Below are positions 3,516 to 57,769 of a stretch of 64,000 nt of DNA, piece by piece; the stretch's first letter is position 1; each line of letters begins with the position of its first letter. Origin of the DNA: an uncultured Candidatus Saccharimonas sp. (GTDB lineage: Bacteria; Patescibacteriota; Saccharimonadia; Saccharimonadales; AQU-01). The stretch is taken from NCBI GenBank assembly GCA_943358095.1, contig CALRGT010000001.1:450-64449 (forward strand), in the 5' to 3' direction. The notes under the pieces were generated by a model. That model saw nothing but the letters and a program-made list of their open reading frames with translations, had not been told where the DNA came from and made no database searches. The translations under genes were made by a program, and so were the position numbers.

Positions 3516-4094
3516 ATGGCTACTACAGATCCACGCAGAATGACCGAAAATGCAGCTGAGGAAAAGCAATTTGACGAAAGAGTAGTTCACGTTGATCGTG
3601 TTGCTCGCGTTGTAAAGGGCGGTCGACGATTCCGTTTCCGTGCGTTAGTCGTAATTGGCGACCACAAAAACAAAGTTGGAATCGGTTCAGCTAAGGGTGC
3701 GGACGTAACAGCAGCTATTACTAAGGCTACTGAAAAAGCCAAGAAAACTCTCATCACTTTGTCTCTTTACAAAGGTACTCTACCTCACGAAGTTCAATCA
3801 AAAGTTGGTGGAGCAAACATTCTAATCAAACCAGCAAGTCCTGGTACAGGTCTTATCGCTGGTGGTGTTGTGCGAACAATCCTAGAAGTCGCTGGTGTAA
3901 GTAACGCTTTGTCTAAGTCAATTGGATCAAGCAACAAGACTAACACCGCTTATGCAACTATCGAAGCATTAAGCACTCTAGTGCCTGCAAAGAATTGGGT
4001 TACTTCTAAGAAAACAGCAAAAGTTGAGAAGACTGAAACTGTAGAGAAGGCACCAGCTAAACCAGTTGTTAAAGCCAAAAAGGCAGAGAAATAA
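3516..4094 (+). CDS. rpsE: 30S ribosomal protein S5 with Lys-rich C-terminal tail
   Basis: S5 dsRBD and C-terminal domain motifs (RVVKGGRRFRFRALVVIGD, GTGLIAGG); followed 2 nt later by rplO with no rpmD. Confidence 0.9.
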   Translation: MATTDPRRMTENAAEEKQFDERVVHVDRVARVVKGGRRFRFRALVVIGDHKNKVGIGSAKGADVTAAITKATEKAKKTLITLSLYKGTLPHEVQSKVGGANILIKPASPGTGLIAGGVVRTILEVAGVSNALSKSIGSSNKTNTAYATIEALSTLVPAKNWVTSKKTAKVEKTETVEKAPAKPVVKAKKAEK

Positions 4095-4676: not shown

Positions 4677-6170
4677 ATGAGCTGGAAAACAATTTGGCAG
4701 TCACTTAAAAACAAAGACATGCGAAGCCGCATTTTAGCTGTGCTTGGTATGCTTTTGGTATTCCGTATATTTGCACATATTCCAGTTCCACTTAGCGACC
4801 CTAAAACACTCAAACAAGTGCTAGAAAACGTCTTTACATCCAGTCAAGCACCTCAGTTACTTAGCTTTATTAACGTACTGTCAGGCGGAGCACTCGAAAA
4901 CTTTTCAATCATGTTAGTTGGTATGGGCCCATACATAAACGCGTCTATCATTCTACAGCTGTTAACTAGAGCGATACCTAAACTTGAAGCTTTGAACAAA
5001 GAGGGTGAGTATGGTCGCAAGAAAATCAATCAATATACGAGGCTCCTCACACTCCCTCTAGCTATGGTTCAGTCTATTGGAGCTATTTATTTAGTTAAGC
5101 AGTCTGCATCTAGTTACGGCGGCATGGGCGATATCACAGCCAACACTACACCGATGCAGTGGGTTTTGATGGTGTCTGCACTTACGGGTGGATCGCTGAT
5201 CTTGATGTGGTTGGGTGAACTTATCACCGAAAAAAGTATCGGTAATGGTATCTCCTTAGTTATTACAGTTGGTATCGTCAGTAGTCTGCCAAAAACAGCC
5301 TCGTCACTATTTTCAGCAATTTATACTAAAACTAATCAGTGGGAGTTGTTCGGCTATAAGTTGCCTATTAGCAAAAAAGAGACTCTCTACAGTTTGATGA
5401 TCATTGGTATAGTTGTCGCCGTTACCGTATTTATTGTTAAGTTGAGCGAGGCTGCTAGAAAGATTACGGTCAATTATGCTAAGCGCGTTCAAGGTAACAG
5501 AAGCTATGGCGGCGTAACTACTATATTGCCAGTCAAATTAATCACTGCTGGAGTTATACCAATTATCTTTGCCGTAGCTTTCTTGAGTGTTCCTCAATTT
5601 GCTGGTCAATTAATGACAGGAATGTCCAATCCAAAGTACCAGTCGCTCGGCACGAAGTTAGTTAGCCTATTTCAGAACCCGAGTGTAGAATCTTTTCGTG
5701 CTGGAGGTTGGCAACCGTATCTTTATCCAATTGTATATTTTGTGTTAGTCGTTATCTTTACCTTTTTCTATACTGGCATCGCCTTTAATGCCAAGGAAAT
5801 CGCAGAAAACTTGCAGAAGCAAGGTGGTTTTATCGCCGACGTAAGATCTGGCCAGCACACCGAGAAGTACTTAGGTAAGTTGGTTAATCGTCTAACGTTC
5901 TTCGGAGCATTAGCTTTAGGCTTGCTAGCTCTACTACCTATCATTGCCCAGATCTTTTTAAAGACAAACATCACAATTGGCGGTACAAGTATTCTTATCT
6001 TGGTGTCTGTAGCTCTTGAAACTTTAAGACAAATCGAGTCACGAGCCCTCATGGTGACTTACGACCAGTATACTGAACCCGATTTCTTCTATGACTCTAG
6101 CGAACCAGCACTGGCTGCAACAGGTGCGCGAAGACTCAAGTATCTGCCAAAGATACGACGAAACAAATAG
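4677..6170 (+). CDS. secY: Preprotein translocase subunit SecY (with C-terminal extension)
   Basis: 497 aa polytopic membrane protein in the canonical post-rplO position; SecY-like TM pattern; RBS GAGGGAAG upstream. Confidence 0.9.
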   Translation: MSWKTIWQSLKNKDMRSRILAVLGMLLVFRIFAHIPVPLSDPKTLKQVLENVFTSSQAPQLLSFINVLSGGALENFSIMLVGMGPYINASIILQLLTRAIPKLEALNKEGEYGRKKINQYTRLLTLPLAMVQSIGAIYLVKQSASSYGGMGDITANTTPMQWVLMVSALTGGSLILMWLGELITEKSIGNGISLVITVGIVSSLPKTASSLFSAIYTKTNQWELFGYKLPISKKETLYSLMIIGIVVAVTVFIVKLSEAARKITVNYAKRVQGNRSYGGVTTILPVKLITAGVIPIIFAVAFLSVPQFAGQLMTGMSNPKYQSLGTKLVSLFQNPSVESFRAGGWQPYLYPIVYFVLVVIFTFFYTGIAFNAKEIAENLQKQGGFIADVRSGQHTEKYLGKLVNRLTFFGALALGLLALLPIIAQIFLKTNITIGGTSILILVSVALETLRQIESRALMVTYDQYTEPDFFYDSSEPALAATGARRLKYLPKIRRNK

Positions 6171-6222
6171 ACATATACGGTCAGTTTTGTAATATCACAG
6201 ATAAGTGCTATAATAGCTTTAT

Positions 6223-7125
6223 ATGTCTAATATTGATCCCGAAACATTAGCTAGCATGAGTAGGCGCGAAATCTATTTTAACCAGCTATCGGCTGACGAT
6301 AAGCTCAATATTATATCTGAAGTTCCTAAAGAGTATGAGGCGTCTGGACTTGCAGGAGAGTCTACTAGAGCTCTCTTAGGTAGTGTTCATGGCCTTATTG
6401 AGAGCGGTGTAGGAAAAGCCCTTAAACACGACCCAAACAAAGAATTTCTTTATGAGCCTAGCGATGGAATAAATGATTTTTATGCCTATTCTAACATTGG
6501 CAAGATTGCAAGTAGGTTCGCCGTAAATGACACTTCTATGTCGACTTTCATGGTTGGTCGCGCCTATTCGCACGCTGCTAAAAAGGCCAATGTAAATGGT
6601 ATGCCAAATGTTGTGTATGGATTTGGAGCTAAAACTCATAATATACTCAAGATACTTCACGAGACTAACGATTCTAAATGGGATGGATTATCTGAAGAAG
6701 ATTATCTTGATGCCGCAACTAGTTCTGGAACATCAACAAGATTGTCGAACAGTAATATGGCAAGAAGTGTGTGGAGAAGTTCAAATACAGTTCAGTTACA
6801 AGAAGAACGCCCTTCAGATGAAGAGATCATAGCTCATAGACTTGATGTTGATAGCGATAATAGTGATGATGAATTAGTAAGCCCTAGTAGTGTAGTGAGT
6901 GATAGGCACTCCGACGATTACAGTGATAGCGATGATCGCCTAGATGCAGCAGTACTTATCAAAAATCTACCTTGGGATCGTTTAGACGAACGGCAAGCGA
7001 GCGTAGTCCATAGAATTAGTAACGGCGAGTCGTTGCAATCAATAGGCGATGATTTAGGCGTTTCCCGCGAACGAGTAAGACAGATTAACCTGAAGGCTAC
7101 AAGCCTTCTACGCAGCGGCAAGTAA
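6223..7125 (+). CDS. Hypothetical protein with C-terminal sigma-70 region-4-type HTH and acidic Ser/Asp-rich linker
   Basis: C-terminus LPWDRLDERQASVVHRISNGESLQSIGDDLGVSRERVRQINLKATSLLRS matches the sigma-70 region 4 (-35 binding) HTH pattern; N-terminal 200 aa without recognisable motif; TATAAT at 6209-6214 only 8 nt before ATG. Confidence 0.5.
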   Translation: MSNIDPETLASMSRREIYFNQLSADDKLNIISEVPKEYEASGLAGESTRALLGSVHGLIESGVGKALKHDPNKEFLYEPSDGINDFYAYSNIGKIASRFAVNDTSMSTFMVGRAYSHAAKKANVNGMPNVVYGFGAKTHNILKILHETNDSKWDGLSEEDYLDAATSSGTSTRLSNSNMARSVWRSSNTVQLQEERPSDEEIIAHRLDVDSDNSDDELVSPSSVVSDRHSDDYSDSDDRLDAAVLIKNLPWDRLDERQASVVHRISNGESLQSIGDDLGVSRERVRQINLKATSLLRSGK

Positions 7126-7242
7126 ATCAATTTCGCTAGCTTCATTGTGAAAATTATTATAGAAATACATATTAATTCGTGATATAGTCGATTTAACTAG
7201 CTCACGGGTAACAAGAGCGATTCTATTATGTAAATAAAAGTA

Positions 7243-7271
7243 TTTACAGATAACACTTTACTTGCTATAAT
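7243..7271 (+). promoter_or_regulatory. Sigma-70-like promoter upstream of infA (TTTACA-17-TATAAT)
   Basis: TTTACA 7243-7248, 17-nt spacer, TATAAT 7266-7271, ATG of infA at 7287. Confidence 0.4.
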
Positions 7272-7286
7272 TGTCATCTGTTATAT

Positions 7287-7505
7287 ATGGCAGCCAACAA
7301 GGAAGTGATAGAACTGGCCGGAACAGTGGTAGAGACCCTTCCAGGGACTCAGTTTCGAGTAGAACTAGAGAATGGCCACCAGATAATAGCTCACGTTGCC
7401 GGGAAAATGCGAAAGCATTTTATACGAATAGTACCTGGTGACAGCGTGACGGTTGAGTTGACTCCTTACGATCTTAGTAAGGGTAGAATCACCTATCGCA
7501 AATAG
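7287..7505 (+). CDS. infA: Translation initiation factor IF-1
   Basis: 72 aa S1-like OB fold sequence ([32 protein letters not shown]...[15 protein letters not shown]). Confidence 0.9.
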
Positions 7506-15640: not shown

Positions 15641-16294
15641 ATGTATGCACTAGTACTCATATTGATTTTCGGATTATTCGCGTATCGTAATTCTACTATT
15701 CGAGATGAAGCAGATAACCCAATTGCTAGTAAGGTTAGCGATAAGCTAGGTAAGCTCTGGGACATAGCGCATCAAGGGATGCGAGAAAATCGTTTCTTAA
15801 GAGCAGAGAAGGCGCTTTTGACTATTCTAAAAATAGACGAGCGCAATGCAGCCGCCTATAACCGGCTTGGAATTTTATACGCAAAACAAAAAGAGTACAA
15901 AGATGCAATCGATTGTTTTGAGATAGCCTCTAGTATCGAAGCTACATCATCAAGTCTTCATAACCTAGGACTTATTTATTATGAAACTGAAAATTATAGT
16001 AAAGCCGCTATTGCCTTTGAGCAGGCCTTAAAATACGAGGATACTATGGCTGCCCGGCATATTGCCTACGCTAAAGTTCAAGAGAAACTAGGAAACATTA
16101 AATTAATGATTCATGAACTAGAGATAGCTTCAGAACTTGAGCCCAACCAAGAAACTTACACGCTTCTACTTAAGGCCTATGAGAGCAACGATATGACCGC
16201 AGACGCCGATATAGTAAGGCACAAACTCAGAAAGGCCACCAGCTCAACCACTAGGCCTAAAAGAGTGTTGCGACCTAGACGCGTTATAGTTTAG
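15641..16294 (+). CDS. TPR-repeat protein with N-terminal membrane anchor
   Basis: N-terminal hydrophobic helix then repeated TPR-like AxxYxxLGxxYxxxxxYxxA segments. Confidence 0.55.
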   Translation: MYALVLILIFGLFAYRNSTIRDEADNPIASKVSDKLGKLWDIAHQGMRENRFLRAEKALLTILKIDERNAAAYNRLGILYAKQKEYKDAIDCFEIASSIEATSSSLHNLGLIYYETENYSKAAIAFEQALKYEDTMAARHIAYAKVQEKLGNIKLMIHELEIASELEPNQETYTLLLKAYESNDMTADADIVRHKLRKATSSTTRPKRVLRPRRVIV

Positions 16295-16946: not shown

Positions 16947-17033
16947 TGGTGCAGGGTGTAGGATTCGAACCTACGAAGGCGTAAGCCAACAGATTTACAG
17001 TCTGCCGTGTTTGACCGCTTCACTAACCCTGCA
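16947..17033 (-). tRNA. tRNA-Tyr (anticodon GTA), long variable arm, CCA encoded
   Basis: Reverse complement folds as cloverleaf: acceptor GCAGGGT/ACCCTGC, anticodon loop CUGUAAA, T-loop GGTTCGAATCC, 87 nt. Confidence 0.85.
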
Positions 17034-17168
17034 TGCTTTTGATCACTCAAAAGCATCTAACATTTTTCATTTGCCATTGATCAGGGATGGAATAGAACCA
17101 TTTATAATTAATTCCATCAATGTTAAATGCTAAATGATCAATGGTCAATGTTTTGATTAATCAAAACT

Positions 17169-17243
17169 TGGAGCCACCTGTCGGATTTGAACCGACGACC
17201 CACGGTTTACAAAACCGTTGCTCTACCACTGAGCTAAGGTGGC
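17169..17243 (-). tRNA. tRNA-Thr (anticodon TGT), CCA encoded
   Basis: Reverse complement GCCACCTTAGCTCAGTGGTAGAGC...anticodon loop TTTGTAA...GGTTCAAATCC...CCA; 75 nt. Confidence 0.85.
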
Positions 17244-17315
17244 GCATTAACAGACAACAGTGTAGCAAATGTCGGCAAGATTTGCTACTATAACAGGGCA
17301 TAAAATTATAATAAT

Positions 17316-17390
<75 letters not shown>

Positions 17391-17412
17391 TAATTGACTA
17401 TTTGTTAAATCC

Positions 17413-17727
17413 ATGACATTATCTTTGAATATGTTTAACCCAGAAGAAGTAGATACTTTCGCTAAATCAGAACGATTACACAGGCGTCAAGATACACTTG
17501 GGCGCATAGCTACGCGATTTATTGCAGGCGGCGCTGGACTAGGTATAATTGCCGGGAAATCTGAAATAGTATCTGGAGCTGGGTTGGCTGTTTTCGGAGT
17601 TGGAGTCCTAGCGACAGATCTTTGGTTTTTTACCAAGCTAGATACACGTGAACTTGATCGCGACAATAAGAAAATGATTAACAGTGTCTTGGTCGAAGCT
17701 GAAGATTTGACGCGAAATTCACATTAG
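17413..17727 (+). CDS. Hypothetical membrane protein
   Basis: 104 aa with Gly/Ala-rich hydrophobic segments (FIAGGAGLGIIAG, GAGLAVFGVGVLATDLWFF). Confidence 0.35.
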   Translation: MTLSLNMFNPEEVDTFAKSERLHRRQDTLGRIATRFIAGGAGLGIIAGKSEIVSGAGLAVFGVGVLATDLWFFTKLDTRELDRDNKKMINSVLVEAEDLTRNSH

Positions 17728-17801
17728 CGACTTGGCAAAGACACGCTCATCTGTTACAATATTGTGAATCGTATAAATAAATTGCATAAAGGCATAAAAT
17801 A

Positions 17802-18008
17802 ATGGCTAAAAAAGGTGATAAAAGAAAATTAGTAGGACTTGTTTCTGAAGAAACTGGTCACCGACATTACTATACTTCTAAGAACACTCAAAATACTCCT
17901 GATAAGCTACGTCTTAAGAAGTACGACCCTATTGCGCGCAAACACGTTTTTTACTCAGAAACCAAGAAAAGCCTTGGCCGAAACGAAGTAAAGCCTCGTA
18001 AACACTAG
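17802..18008 (+). CDS. rpmG: 50S ribosomal protein L33, Cys-less (non-zinc) form
   Basis: [56 protein letters not shown] matches the L33 consensus with all four Cys replaced. Confidence 0.8.
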
Positions 18009-18111
18009 AGACAAGTAATACAGAACATTTAACCCATTACAAAAGTAGTGGGTTTTTTAATTGCTGGGCCTATACAAGACATAGTTATATCTTATTCCAA
18101 ATGCTCTGTAA

Positions 18112-18146
18112 GCAAAAACCCGAGCACAATGCTCGGGCGTTTTGCT
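18112..18146. terminator. Bidirectional intrinsic terminator between rpmG (+) and tRNA-Trp (-)
   Basis: CCCGAGCA-CAAT-GCTCGGG stem flanked by A-run on one side and T-rich tract on the other. Confidence 0.6.
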
Positions 18147-18220
18147 TGGCAGGGGTACGTGGAATCGAACCACGGTCTAAGGTTTTGGAGACCTTCATAC
18201 TAACCGCTGTACTATACCCC
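18147..18220 (-). tRNA. tRNA-Trp (anticodon CCA)
   Basis: Reverse complement GGGGTATAGTACAGCGGTTAGTAT...anticodon loop CTCCAAA...GGTTCGATTCCACGTACCCCTGCCA; 74 nt. Confidence 0.85.
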
Positions 18221-18329
18221 TATAATACTTAACTTAGAACTTAAGTGAATAACTAACCTATTTTACCTTAAATTGTCATAAAAACGAATTTTTGCACATT
18301 CTCGTTAATCTGATATACAATATAATGAC

Positions 18330-30102: not shown

Positions 30103-30131
30103 TTGACTTAATCTGTTAAATAGACTAGAAT
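30103..30131 (+). promoter_or_regulatory. Sigma-70-like promoter for rplJ-rplL (TTGACT-17-TAGAAT)
   Basis: TTGACT 30103-30108, 17-nt spacer, TAGAAT 30126-30131, ~190 nt upstream of rplJ. Confidence 0.45.
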
Positions 30132-30318
30132 AACTCTGTTACCAAAGACAGTAGCGGTGAGTCCTAACAGACAAACGTAAAAATGCTACCGAGGTCAGAA
30201 TTTATTCTCTTCGAAATTATTAGTCTTTGATGTAAATCGTCGAAGACTTTTTATTTTCGGTAACAAACAGTCCTCAATGGTCGATGGCTGTTAATAACAA
30301 CAAAAGGAAACATTATCT
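30132..30318 (+). promoter_or_regulatory. rplJ 5' leader (candidate L10(L12)4 autoregulatory leader)
   Basis: Long untranslated leader between promoter and rplJ, as found for L10 leaders in most bacteria; structure not verified. Confidence 0.3.
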
Positions 30319-30843
30319 ATGGCGCTAAGTAGAATCAAGAAGAACGAAGTACTCGACGAAGTCAGTGGCTTACTCGATGCTTCAAAACTTACTGTACTTG
30401 CAGCATATGCCGGTACGAGCGTGAAAGAGCTACAAGAGTTGCGAAAATCAGCTCGTGAAAACTCGACTCACGTTAGAGTCATCAAAAACCGTTTGGTCAT
30501 TAAGGCACTACAAAACAACGAACGCTTTAAAGCAGTTGACACTAGCGCACTAAAAGGCCAGATACTATACGCCTTCAACAGCGAAGACGAAGTAGCTTCA
30601 GCACAAGTTTTGGCAAAGTTTGCTAAAACCGCTCCAACTCTTCAATTCGTAGGTGGTATCAGTAGCGAAGGTGCTTTTATTAGCGCCGACGACGTAAAAG
30701 CCCTAGCATTATTGCCGGGCAAAAATCAGCTTATTGCTGAGGTACTGGCAACACTTTCATCTCCGTTAGACGGAGTTATGAACGGTTTGTCAGGCAACTT
30801 ACACGCTCTACTCGATGGAGTAGAAGCTAAGGCAAAAGCCTAA
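30319..30843 (+). CDS. rplJ: 50S ribosomal protein L10
   Basis: 174 aa L10; followed by rplL. Confidence 0.9.
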   Translation: MALSRIKKNEVLDEVSGLLDASKLTVLAAYAGTSVKELQELRKSARENSTHVRVIKNRLVIKALQNNERFKAVDTSALKGQILYAFNSEDEVASAQVLAKFAKTAPTLQFVGGISSEGAFISADDVKALALLPGKNQLIAEVLATLSSPLDGVMNGLSGNLHALLDGVEAKAKA

Positions 30844-30865: not shown

Positions 30866-31246
30866 ATGGCAGATTTAAAGAAGATTGCAGAACAGTTAAC
30901 AGGCTTGACTGTACTAGAAGTTAACGAACTTAAGACTATCCTTAAGGATGAATACGGTATCGAACCAGCTGCAGCAGCAGTTGCAATGGCCGGTCCAGCT
31001 GGCGGCGGCGACGCTGCTCCTGCTGAAGACGCTAAAAGTGAATACAACGTCGTTCTAAAAGACGCTGGTGCACAGAAGGTCGCTATCATCAAAGCTGTTA
31101 AGGACATCACAGGCCTAGGTCTTGGTGAAGCTAAAGCTCTAGTTGATGGTGCTCCAAAAACTATCTTAGAAAACGCTAAGAAAGATGACGCTGAAGCAGC
31201 CAAGAAAACTCTTGAAGACGCTGGCGCAACTGTCGAACTAGTCTAA
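30866..31246 (+). CDS. rplL: 50S ribosomal protein L7/L12
   Basis: N-terminal dimerisation helix, Ala/Gly/Pro hinge ([21 protein letters not shown]), conserved C-terminal domain ([28 protein letters not shown]). Confidence 0.9.
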
Positions 31247-56758: not shown

Positions 56759-57769
56759 CTAATTTAATAGCTTCTGATACTTATCTAAAGCAAGGTTTTT
56801 AAGTGCCCAATCGGCATATATACTAGGTACTCTTGCGAGTGTGTGGAAGTTGTCATTCTTATCGCTTTTTAGAATATCCGATGCCTGCGTATTTATTTCT
56901 GAAATTCTTCTGTAGGTTTCTGTTATAGAGCCGTCGACAGTCATAACATCTAATAGTTCAGGGAGTAAGGCTAGATCAAATCTATCATTTAAATATTTAG
57001 ATACATTAGAACCTTCTGACTTTAAAGATAATAAGATGGGCAGGGTATACACGCCTTCTTTAACGTCGTTACCGCTAAGTTTACCAATCAATTTTGCATC
57101 ACCGATGAGATCAAGCAGATCATCAACCAGCTGAAAGGAACGGCCAAAATTAATACCAAATTCAGCGAGACGAGATAATTTATCCTTGCTCAGTCCCGCA
57201 CAAAGTCCTCCAATTCTACAGGTAGCCGACATGAGGGCGGATGTCTTGCCATCAATAGCTCTAAACATAGAATCAATAGAGCGCTTCGTATTGTAACTAT
57301 CGGCCATCTCAAAAATCTGGCCAATAGTCATCTCGCGAAAAGCTGAGGCTAAAACTAACCCACAATCTGACGAGATAGCAGAAGCCATTTCGATGGACTT
57401 CGCAAATAGATAATCTCCAGCTAAAATTGCGTAATCCACTCCCTCACGAGCATTAATAGTAGCCACCGACCATCTGCTGTCTGCATTGTCGATAATATCG
57501 TCGTGAATCAAGCTGGCAATATGTAATAACTCAATTGACGCAGCTAATGTCAGAACCTTCTCATCTATTTCTTGGCCACAAGCCATAACTACAGCTATCA
57601 ATATAGCTGGGCGTAATCTTTTGGCCTTAGGGCTCAACATTCTAGTTAAAGACTGCTTAATAGGCTTAGGGGCGTCACTCAAACGAGTTAATAATATCGA
57701 GTTTAGGCGGACTTGATAGTCGCTCCATTCTGGTATATTCAGCGATTCGGCTATAGAGAATTTATTCAT
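56759..57769 (-). CDS. Polyprenyl diphosphate synthase (trans-isoprenyl diphosphate synthase family)
   Basis: First (LIHDDIIDNAD) and second (FQLVDDLLD) aspartate-rich motifs; 336 aa. Confidence 0.8.
   Translation of the reverse strand: MNKFSIAESLNIPEWSDYQVRLNSILLTRLSDAPKPIKQSLTRMLSPKAKRLRPAILIAVVMACGQEIDEKVLTLAASIELLHIASLIHDDIIDNADSRWSVATINAREGVDYAILAGDYLFAKSIEMASAISSDCGLVLASAFREMTIGQIFEMADSYNTKRSIDSMFRAIDGKTSALMSATCRIGGLCAGLSKDKLSRLAEFGINFGRSFQLVDDLLDLIGDAKLIGKLSGNDVKEGVYTLPILLSLKSEGSNVSKYLNDRFDLALLPELLDVMTVDGSITETYRRISEINTQASDILKSDKNDNFHTLARVPSIYADWALKNLALDKYQKLLN

Follow-up and report, generated by a model that had tools for sequence, protein, structure and literature searches.

The 64,000-nt stretch of DNA analysed here (the window) is a segment of a Saccharibacteria chromosome that bears the spc/alpha ribosomal-protein cluster. 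Between secY and infA in this cluster lies an open reading frame (ORF) for a sigma-factor-like protein of 300 amino acids; its coordinates and those of the features discussed below are given in Table 1, and its placement agrees with the initial annotation of this DNA. The GC content of the ORF (0.40-0.42) equals that of the adjoining genes, and a 95%-identical copy of the gene is found in the MAG 'Candidatus Saccharibacteria bacterium ELA371'. Relative to the close copies in two metagenomic loci (L007 and L011), dN/dS is 0.08-0.10, with similar values for each of the three segments (N-terminal, acidic and region 4). The ORF is a real gene under purifying selection. It is not a fragment of a full-length sigma factor disrupted by a frameshift, a possibility raised initially: its homologues conserve the N-terminus from residue 1, and the stop codon of secY lies just 52 nt upstream.

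Table 1. Features of the secY-infA region and of the sigma-like protein (positions are those of the window)
Feature	Residues	Position	Strand	Basis or remark
secY		4677-6170		upstream neighbour
sigma-70-type promoter, predicted		6187-6214	+	-35-like TTGTAA, 16-nt spacer, TATAAT; 10/12 matches; TG present
sigma-factor-like CDS (ATG start)		6223-7125, stop codon included	+	ORF list; homologues; dN/dS
sigma-2-like domain (regions 1.2/2.1-2.4)	22-136	6286-6630	+	hhalign of residues 1-196
three predicted helices at the sigma domain 3 position	137-196	6631-6810	+	AF2 helices 138-151, 158-167, 177-187
conserved acidic motif PSDEEIIAHRLDVDSDNSDDELVSP at the region 3.2 / sigma finger position	197-221	6811-6885	+	family alignment; full-length hhalign
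sigma region 4 (4.1-4.2 HTH)	250-298	6970-7116	+	PF04545; PDB profile; NCBIfam RpoH
infA		7287-7505		161 nt after the sigma-like gene; followed by rpmJ, rpsM

Elsewhere in the window, the ribosomal proteins S17 (275-658, 127 aa), S5 (3516-4094, 192 aa) and L17 (10084-10572, 162 aa) carry Lys/Ala/Val-rich C-terminal tails, which presumably give them a greater length than is usual for these proteins in bacteria. A cluster of four tRNA genes (Tyr, Thr, Thr, Trp) is located at 16947-18221, in a 2-kb stretch that is devoid of long ORFs. An Rfam L10 leader (30124-30262) directly precedes ORFs 30319-30843 and 30866-31246, which we take to be rplJ and rplL.

The predicted promoter of the sigma-like gene has an extended -10 element, TGCTATAAT, at 6206-6214. 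Its TATAAT box (6209-6214), which had been recognized before, is preceded by TG and ends 8 nt before the ATG, and no Shine-Dalgarno sequence is present before this ATG; secY, in contrast, has GAGGGAAG. The -35-like element can alternatively be read as TTTGTA with a 17-nt spacer. In an orthologue with 64% identity (L001), both TGCTATAAT and the 8-nt distance are retained, while the sequence between secY and the box differs, with a gap of 14 nt. As the promoter-to-ATG geometry is kept in this orthologue, the earlier proposal of a leaderless (or near-leaderless) transcript is plausible: transcription starting at A6221 or A6223 would yield an mRNA with a 2-nt leader or none. At least eight other long ORFs of the window likewise have a TAnAAT box 6-11 nt before their first ATG (at 15641, 18330, 31979, 37953 and 60640 on the + strand, and at 57769, 44689 and 16635 on the - strand), and a similar -10-to-ATG geometry precedes most distant members of the protein family described below. 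This arrangement is therefore a habit of these genomes that is not special to the sigma-like gene, and it suggests that the genome from which the window derives often makes use of leaderless or near-leaderless mRNAs. Predictions give no intrinsic terminator on the + strand before or after the gene, which would allow read-through from secY; since the ORF has no ribosome-binding site, however, its translation probably depends on its own transcript. The idea that its location in a ribosomal-protein operon couples the gene to growth rate is speculation.

Two further observations concern the sequences around this gene. The promoter and short leader of infA (7236-7289 in the window, and the corresponding regions of L012-L035) are strikingly conserved among Saccharibacteria loci whose SecY proteins are 68-79% identical to that of the window. 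The pattern consists of CACTTTACA, a spacer of ~17 nt, TG.TATA(A/C)T, ~8 nt, (C)TTGTTATAT, 1-5 nt and ATGGC. This conserved region contains no Shine-Dalgarno sequence, and the conserved GTTATAT beside the infA start codon may have a role in translational control. The start of the sigma-like gene in L001 (TGCTATAAT-ACTGTTAT-ATG) resembles a shortened version of the infA promoter and leader. In addition, a perfect 10-nt inverted repeat, TAGACATATA / TATATGTCTA (6168-6177 / 6220-6229), extends from the secY stop codon to the ATG of the sigma-like gene and encloses the promoter. We considered that it might form a hairpin that occludes the start in read-through mRNA, and rejected this idea: the repeat is not conserved in L007 or L001, and we estimate that its frequency is about that expected by chance for the region.

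The most readily recognized part of the protein is its C-terminus, whose last ~55 residues had been assigned to sigma region 4. Residues 252-297 match the Pfam model Sigma70_r4 (PF04545; E 6.4e-8, 32.4 bits, cut-off 24.1), and this model is found in 14 of the 17 members of the family, whereas Sigma70_r4_2 (PF08281) is found in only one (E 0.003). The NCBIfam RpoH and RpoS models give a colinear match to residues 178-297, and phrog_351 matches residues 194-297 (E 4.5e-6). When a profile of the family is compared with the PDB, it matches region 4 of SigA, RpoS and RpoD, with E-values down to 3.6e-14, the best sequence matches being to region 4 of SigA. The recognition helix, SRERVRQI, matches the TRERIRQI of primary sigma factors, and its contact residues (R-E-R-x-R-Q) are those of sigmaA; the residues that contact the -35 element are therefore the same. 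The window's clade differs from the rest of the family by a deletion of 7 residues in the 4.1-4.2 turn.

An HTH of the LuxR/GerE class (PF00196), which had been named as the possible alternative, reaches only 12.3 bits (E 0.13, cut-off 23.5), and Sigma70_r4 is far better on the same residues. In view of the Pfam, PDB and NCBIfam matches to region 4, the original domain call is thus right, and the LuxR alternative is rejected. Nor does the protein qualify as MzaA, the sigma factor of the MZA anti-phage system: it scores 18.2 bits against an NCBIfam cut-off of 800, PADLOC returns no match for it, and its neighbours are secY and infA. Throughout our scans with Pfam, NCBIfam, PHROGs and PADLOC, just region 4 and the segment adjoining it are recognized, and region 4 alone passes curated thresholds.

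The protein belongs to a small family. Among 1.84 billion cluster representatives searched exhaustively with HMMER, ~15 clusters share the whole N-terminal region; word-indexed profile searches added only two members (P0126 and P0142), for a total of ~17 clusters. All are apparently from Saccharibacteria-like genomes, among which their distribution is patchy and rare. Members outside the window's clade are 20-34% identical to the window protein. The common architecture is an N-terminal domain of ~200 residues, an acidic motif and region 4. Nine positions are nearly invariant (E37, A50, G62, D81, G126, R206, D215, D216 and E217), and four of these nine lie in what had been supposed to be a disordered linker. 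Most of the distant members (P0006-P0016) have an additional C-terminal extension of 100-170 aa that the window's clade lacks; the extension of P0007 matches HTH_3 (E 5.7e-5) and phrog_4779, a 'transcriptional regulator'. Existing annotations are either 'hypothetical protein' or 'sigma factor-like helix-turn-helix DNA-binding protein', the latter being the NCBI name of the 95%-identical protein. Our literature search returned nothing on this family, and nothing relevant on sigma factors or leaderless mRNAs in Saccharibacteria or Patescibacteria. In four other proteins (P0011, P0013, P0017 and P0019), the region-4 part of the profile matches 6-10 times in tandem (in 10 stretches in P0011, of 629 aa); these proteins appear to be arrays of sigma-4-like HTH repeats, unrelated to the N-terminal domain of the family.

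The loci of the distant members exhibit no conserved partner gene, and we saw no mobile-element genes in them. Three members of a second clade (P0126, P0142 and P0014) lie directly downstream of parA-parB (L009 8001-9278, L096 5001-5960 and L097 4013-5221), so that a link of this clade to chromosome partition is possible. All three genes also converge on a signal peptidase gene. P0008 (L091 4709-7410) is located between uppS and a divergently oriented gene for an M50 protease (an RseP-like site-2 protease). Site-2 proteases process anti-sigma factors in other systems, but this adjacency may only reflect an insertion into the frr-uppS-rseP cluster. Other distant members are found among metabolic genes. 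ORFs neighbouring two of the distant members (L008 160-1107 and L010 740-1558) were considered as paralogues, and rejected on comparison.

The initial annotation held that the N-terminal 200 residues have no features of sigma regions 2 or 3. Consistent with that view, the Pfam models Sigma70_r2 (PF04542) and Sigma70_r3 do not match any of the 17 family members, even at E<=10. However, a profile-profile comparison leads to a different conclusion. We cut the family alignment to residues 1-196, which excludes any contribution of region 4, and aligned it using hhalign to a reference of 40 sigma factors taken from search hits, of which eight were verified with Pfam r2/r4 and the rest were picked by an HMM of those eight. 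Residues 22-136 align to sigma regions 1.2-2.4 with a score of 30.7 (P 9e-4). The reversed query scores 14.3, 100 column shuffles score 12.5 on average (maximum 19.5), and 100 shuffles of 12-column blocks score 14.9 on average (sd 2.9, maximum 24.5). The N-terminal score therefore exceeds those of all 200 shuffles and is more than 5 sd above the block-shuffled controls. At the level of sequence profiles, this similarity to sigma-2 is one of remote homology, below the thresholds of family models. An hhalign comparison with the full-length protein is colinear from region 2.1 to region 4.2, with a probability of 98-98.6.

For residue mapping and numbering we used as a ruler a fragment of E. coli sigma70. 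On this ruler, GESTRALLGSVHGLIESGVGKALKH corresponds to sigma70 region 2.1, D81-GINDF to D403-LIQEG (which puts D81 at the DLIQEG position), M106-STFMVGRAYSHAAK to F427-STYATWWIRQAITR (at the FSTYATWWIRQAITR position), NVVYGF to IRIPVH, and RLDVDSDNSDDELV to the acidic region 3.2 (ISMETPIGDDEDSHLGDF). The alignment of M106-STFMVGRAYSHAAK to region 2.3 places Gly112-Arg113 at W433/W434. The region 2.3 aromatics Y430, W433 and W434, as numbered on this fragment, are thus replaced by F109, G112 and R113, and the canonical residues for melting the -10 element are absent. Across the family, the positions of the tryptophan pair are conserved as G-R/E/K, and the equivalent of Y430 is variable. Sigma factors of the ECF group also do without the W433/W434 pair, yet are fully active; a protein that lacks the pair may thus still initiate transcription.

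Between the sigma-2-like domain and region 4 lie three predicted helices and an acidic, Ser/Asp-rich segment (residues ~197-249). This segment had been described as an acidic disordered linker. Its acidity is clear, but disorder does not describe it well: model confidence is low only at residues 217-237, and residues 197-221 constitute the most conserved motif of the family, with the pattern E.R(L).V(D/E)(S/A)D..DDE(L/W)V. R206, D215, D216 and E217 are nearly invariant across 15-17 family members that are 20-30% identical overall. Compared with the 64% orthologue (P0003), identity is highest in residues 197-249 (79%), followed by region 4 (73%) and the N-terminus (57%). The full-length hhalign comparison sets the acidic segment opposite region 3.2. 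However, the score of residues 126-246 alone lies inside the shuffle null, revealing no sequence similarity to sigma-3 or region 3.2, and the similarity of the acidic segment on its own to region 3.2 is not significant. The assignment of sigma-3 and region 3.2 therefore rests only on helix count, position and fold alignment.

We predicted the structure with AF2. An alignment of the 17 family sequences gave a mean pLDDT of 78, whereas a 4-sequence alignment gave a pLDDT of 48, which was too poor for use. In a Foldseek search of the PDB with the former model, the top 50 matches are all full-length sigma chains (SigA, sigma32, SigB and RpoS; two of the 50 are integrative models), including the sigma32 holoenzyme chain 8hkc_E and the S. 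aureus SigB chain 8x6g_H. The alignments span ~275-345 columns, with a best E-value of 1.6e-4. Phage sigma factors were likewise returned from a viral structure library, as equally good fold matches. Global TM-scores against sigma chains are low (0.26-0.41), as is normal for flexible multi-domain proteins.

We also asked how the gene relates to its location. The initial annotation placed it in an 'adk/map slot' of the spc-alpha operon. In 80 metagenomic loci with SecY proteins 58-97% identical to that of the window, we determined the positions of secY, infA and any family members. A family gene between secY and infA is present only in the window's clade, i.e., in L007, L011 and, as the 64% orthologue, in L001-L006. 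Among the other loci with both genes on the contig (66, with SecY 58-79% identical), infA begins no more than 200 nt after secY in 52. The other 14 carry unrelated inserts of 0.4-3 kb, some of them on the opposite strand, which on reading by eye encode apparent methyltransferase-like, phosphoesterase-like and acyl-CoA-ligase-like proteins, along with hypothetical proteins. Neither adk nor map occurs at the junction in any of the 66 loci, and none of adk, map and rpoD was picked up by motif scans of the 64-kb window and of related loci. There is thus no such slot in this lineage. Since infA adjoins secY in most loci and unrelated genes are inserted in others, the secY-infA junction (6171-7286 in the window; L012-L090) is an insertion hotspot in Saccharibacteria, and the sigma-like gene is one of its cargoes. 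In the window, the insert is a single gene, and no integrase, repeats or other element genes were found around it.

Comparison with known sigma factors reveals partial resemblances to several groups. With group 3 sigma factors (RpoH/sigma32, SigB/F/G and FliA), the protein shares a size of ~250-300 aa, the proposed order sigma2-sigma3-region 3.2-sigma4, and a region 4 of the PF04545 type. Unlike them, it matches neither of the Pfam models for regions 2 and 3, it has Gly-Arg in place of the tryptophan pair of region 2.3, and its family has its own near-invariant acidic motif (E.R.x.VDSD..DDELV) and many C-terminally extended members. The recognition helix of region 4.2 and the -35 contacts are shared with primary sigma factors (SigA/RpoD), but the protein lacks region 1.1, its region 2 is far diverged, and its clade has the 7-residue deletion between 4.1 and 4.2. 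ECF (group 4) sigma factors also lack the W433/W434 pair; however, nothing in them corresponds to the ~110-aa segment that separates sigma-2 from sigma-4 here, and their region 4 is of the PF08281 type, whereas the window protein matches PF04545. Region-4-only 'sigma factor-like helix-turn-helix' proteins share their name with the 95%-identical protein, and only region 4 of the window protein passes curated thresholds, but the window protein has ~200 conserved residues before region 4, including the sigma-2-like domain. Finally, divergent phage sigma factors (PHROG 351, and those like SigF/G in Bacillus phages) are comparable in fold and in the match of phrog_351. The window gene, in contrast, has a chromosomal housekeeping context, native composition and no phage genes nearby.

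Taken together, we consider it probable (at roughly 60%) that the product of the ORF is a sigma-70-superfamily protein, complete but highly divergent, and that it belongs to a rare family known to date only from small genomes of the Saccharibacteria type. Its most likely architecture is a sigma-2-like N-terminal domain, three helices where sigma-3 would lie, an acidic segment in the place of region 3.2, and a canonical sigma-4; the length of 300 aa and the order of domains agree with group 3 sigma factors. The gene arrived as a single-gene insertion between secY and infA, and has since been maintained by purifying selection. It is probably transcribed from its own housekeeping-type extended -10 promoter into an mRNA that is leaderless or has a 2-nt leader, like several other genes of this genome. 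The protein probably binds core RNA polymerase in the manner of sigma factors, the predicted docking sites being the beta-prime clamp helices for sigma-2 and the beta flap for sigma-4. A TTGACA-like -35 element would be read through sigmaA-type contacts (R-E-R-x-R-Q), and, with Gly-Arg in place of the tryptophan pair, the -10 region would be handled otherwise than in groups 1-3. Such docking, together with sigmaA-like -35 recognition and altered treatment of the -10 region, would let the protein either serve as an alternative sigma factor or compete with the primary one. Core binding, promoter specificity and the leaderless start are properties that we infer.

The same features could belong to a sigma-derived regulator that no longer initiates transcription, acting as a decoy or competitor at -35 elements or at the beta flap/clamp and thereby dampening sigmaA, or simply as an ordinary DNA-binding regulator. 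The Gly-Arg at W433/W434 and the variable equivalent of Y430 would fit such a role, as would region 4.2 contacts identical to those of the primary sigma factor, which suit competition for the same -35 elements. Many members also end in an additional HTH_3-like domain, an uncommon feature among sigma factors, and similarity to sigma-3 and region 3.2 is undetectable by sequence. However, ECF sigma factors are active without the tryptophan pair, and a mere -35 binder would need neither the sigma-2-like domain nor the acidic segment, both of which are under strong selection. We regard this possibility as conceivable but doubtful. The initial annotation viewed the protein as an orphan, free region-4 modulator that is joined by a disordered acidic linker to an unrelated N-terminal domain. 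That model is unlikely given that the N-terminus alone stands more than 5 sd above block shuffles in its similarity to sigma regions 1.2-2.4, that the predicted fold aligns over its full length only to sigma factors, and that the 'linker' is the most conserved part of the protein and not a spacer. It does agree with the fact that Pfam and NCBIfam see only region 4 and the segment just before it, and with the name that NCBI gives to one member.

Another explanation is that the gene is the cargo of a phage or other mobile element, i.e., a phage- or plasmid-type sigma factor in an integration hotspot that serves the element and not the cell. The composition equal to that of the flanks, the lack of an integrase, repeats or element genes around a single-gene insert, and the absence of a PADLOC match all make this very unlikely, as do the stable position between orthologues with only 64% identity, the dN/dS of ~0.1, and the location of distant members among housekeeping genes, three of them directly after parA-parB. 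These observations outweigh, in our view, the points that would favour it: the patchy and rare distribution of the family, the unrelated genes between secY and infA in 14 of 66 relatives, the equally good fold matches to phage sigma factors, and the match to phrog_351.

Returning to the reading as a divergent sigma factor, very few transcription regulators can be recognized in the tiny genomes of Saccharibacteria and other CPR bacteria, whose sigma repertoire is usually read from Pfam and NCBI models. Here, a conserved and selected sigma-like protein is reduced by such standard models to 'region 4 only' or 'hypothetical'. The secY-infA junction is, in addition, a recurrent landing site for accessory genes in the phylum. 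If the protein does bind core polymerase, it would add a regulatory layer in a group whose host-dependent lifestyle is poorly understood, and it would be a natural example of a sigma-2 domain that lacks the canonical melting residues but is combined with sigmaA-like reading of the -35 element. A bolder idea, which we put forward only tentatively and think more apt to be wrong than right, is that this new, Saccharibacteria-restricted family engages RNA polymerase in a non-canonical manner. For example, the acidic E.R..VDSD..DDELV motif might mimic nucleic acid in the active-site or RNA-exit channel while sigma-4 holds a sigmaA-type -35 element. If this were true, it would mean -10-independent initiation, or global antagonism of the primary sigma factor, in ultra-small episymbionts with very few regulators.
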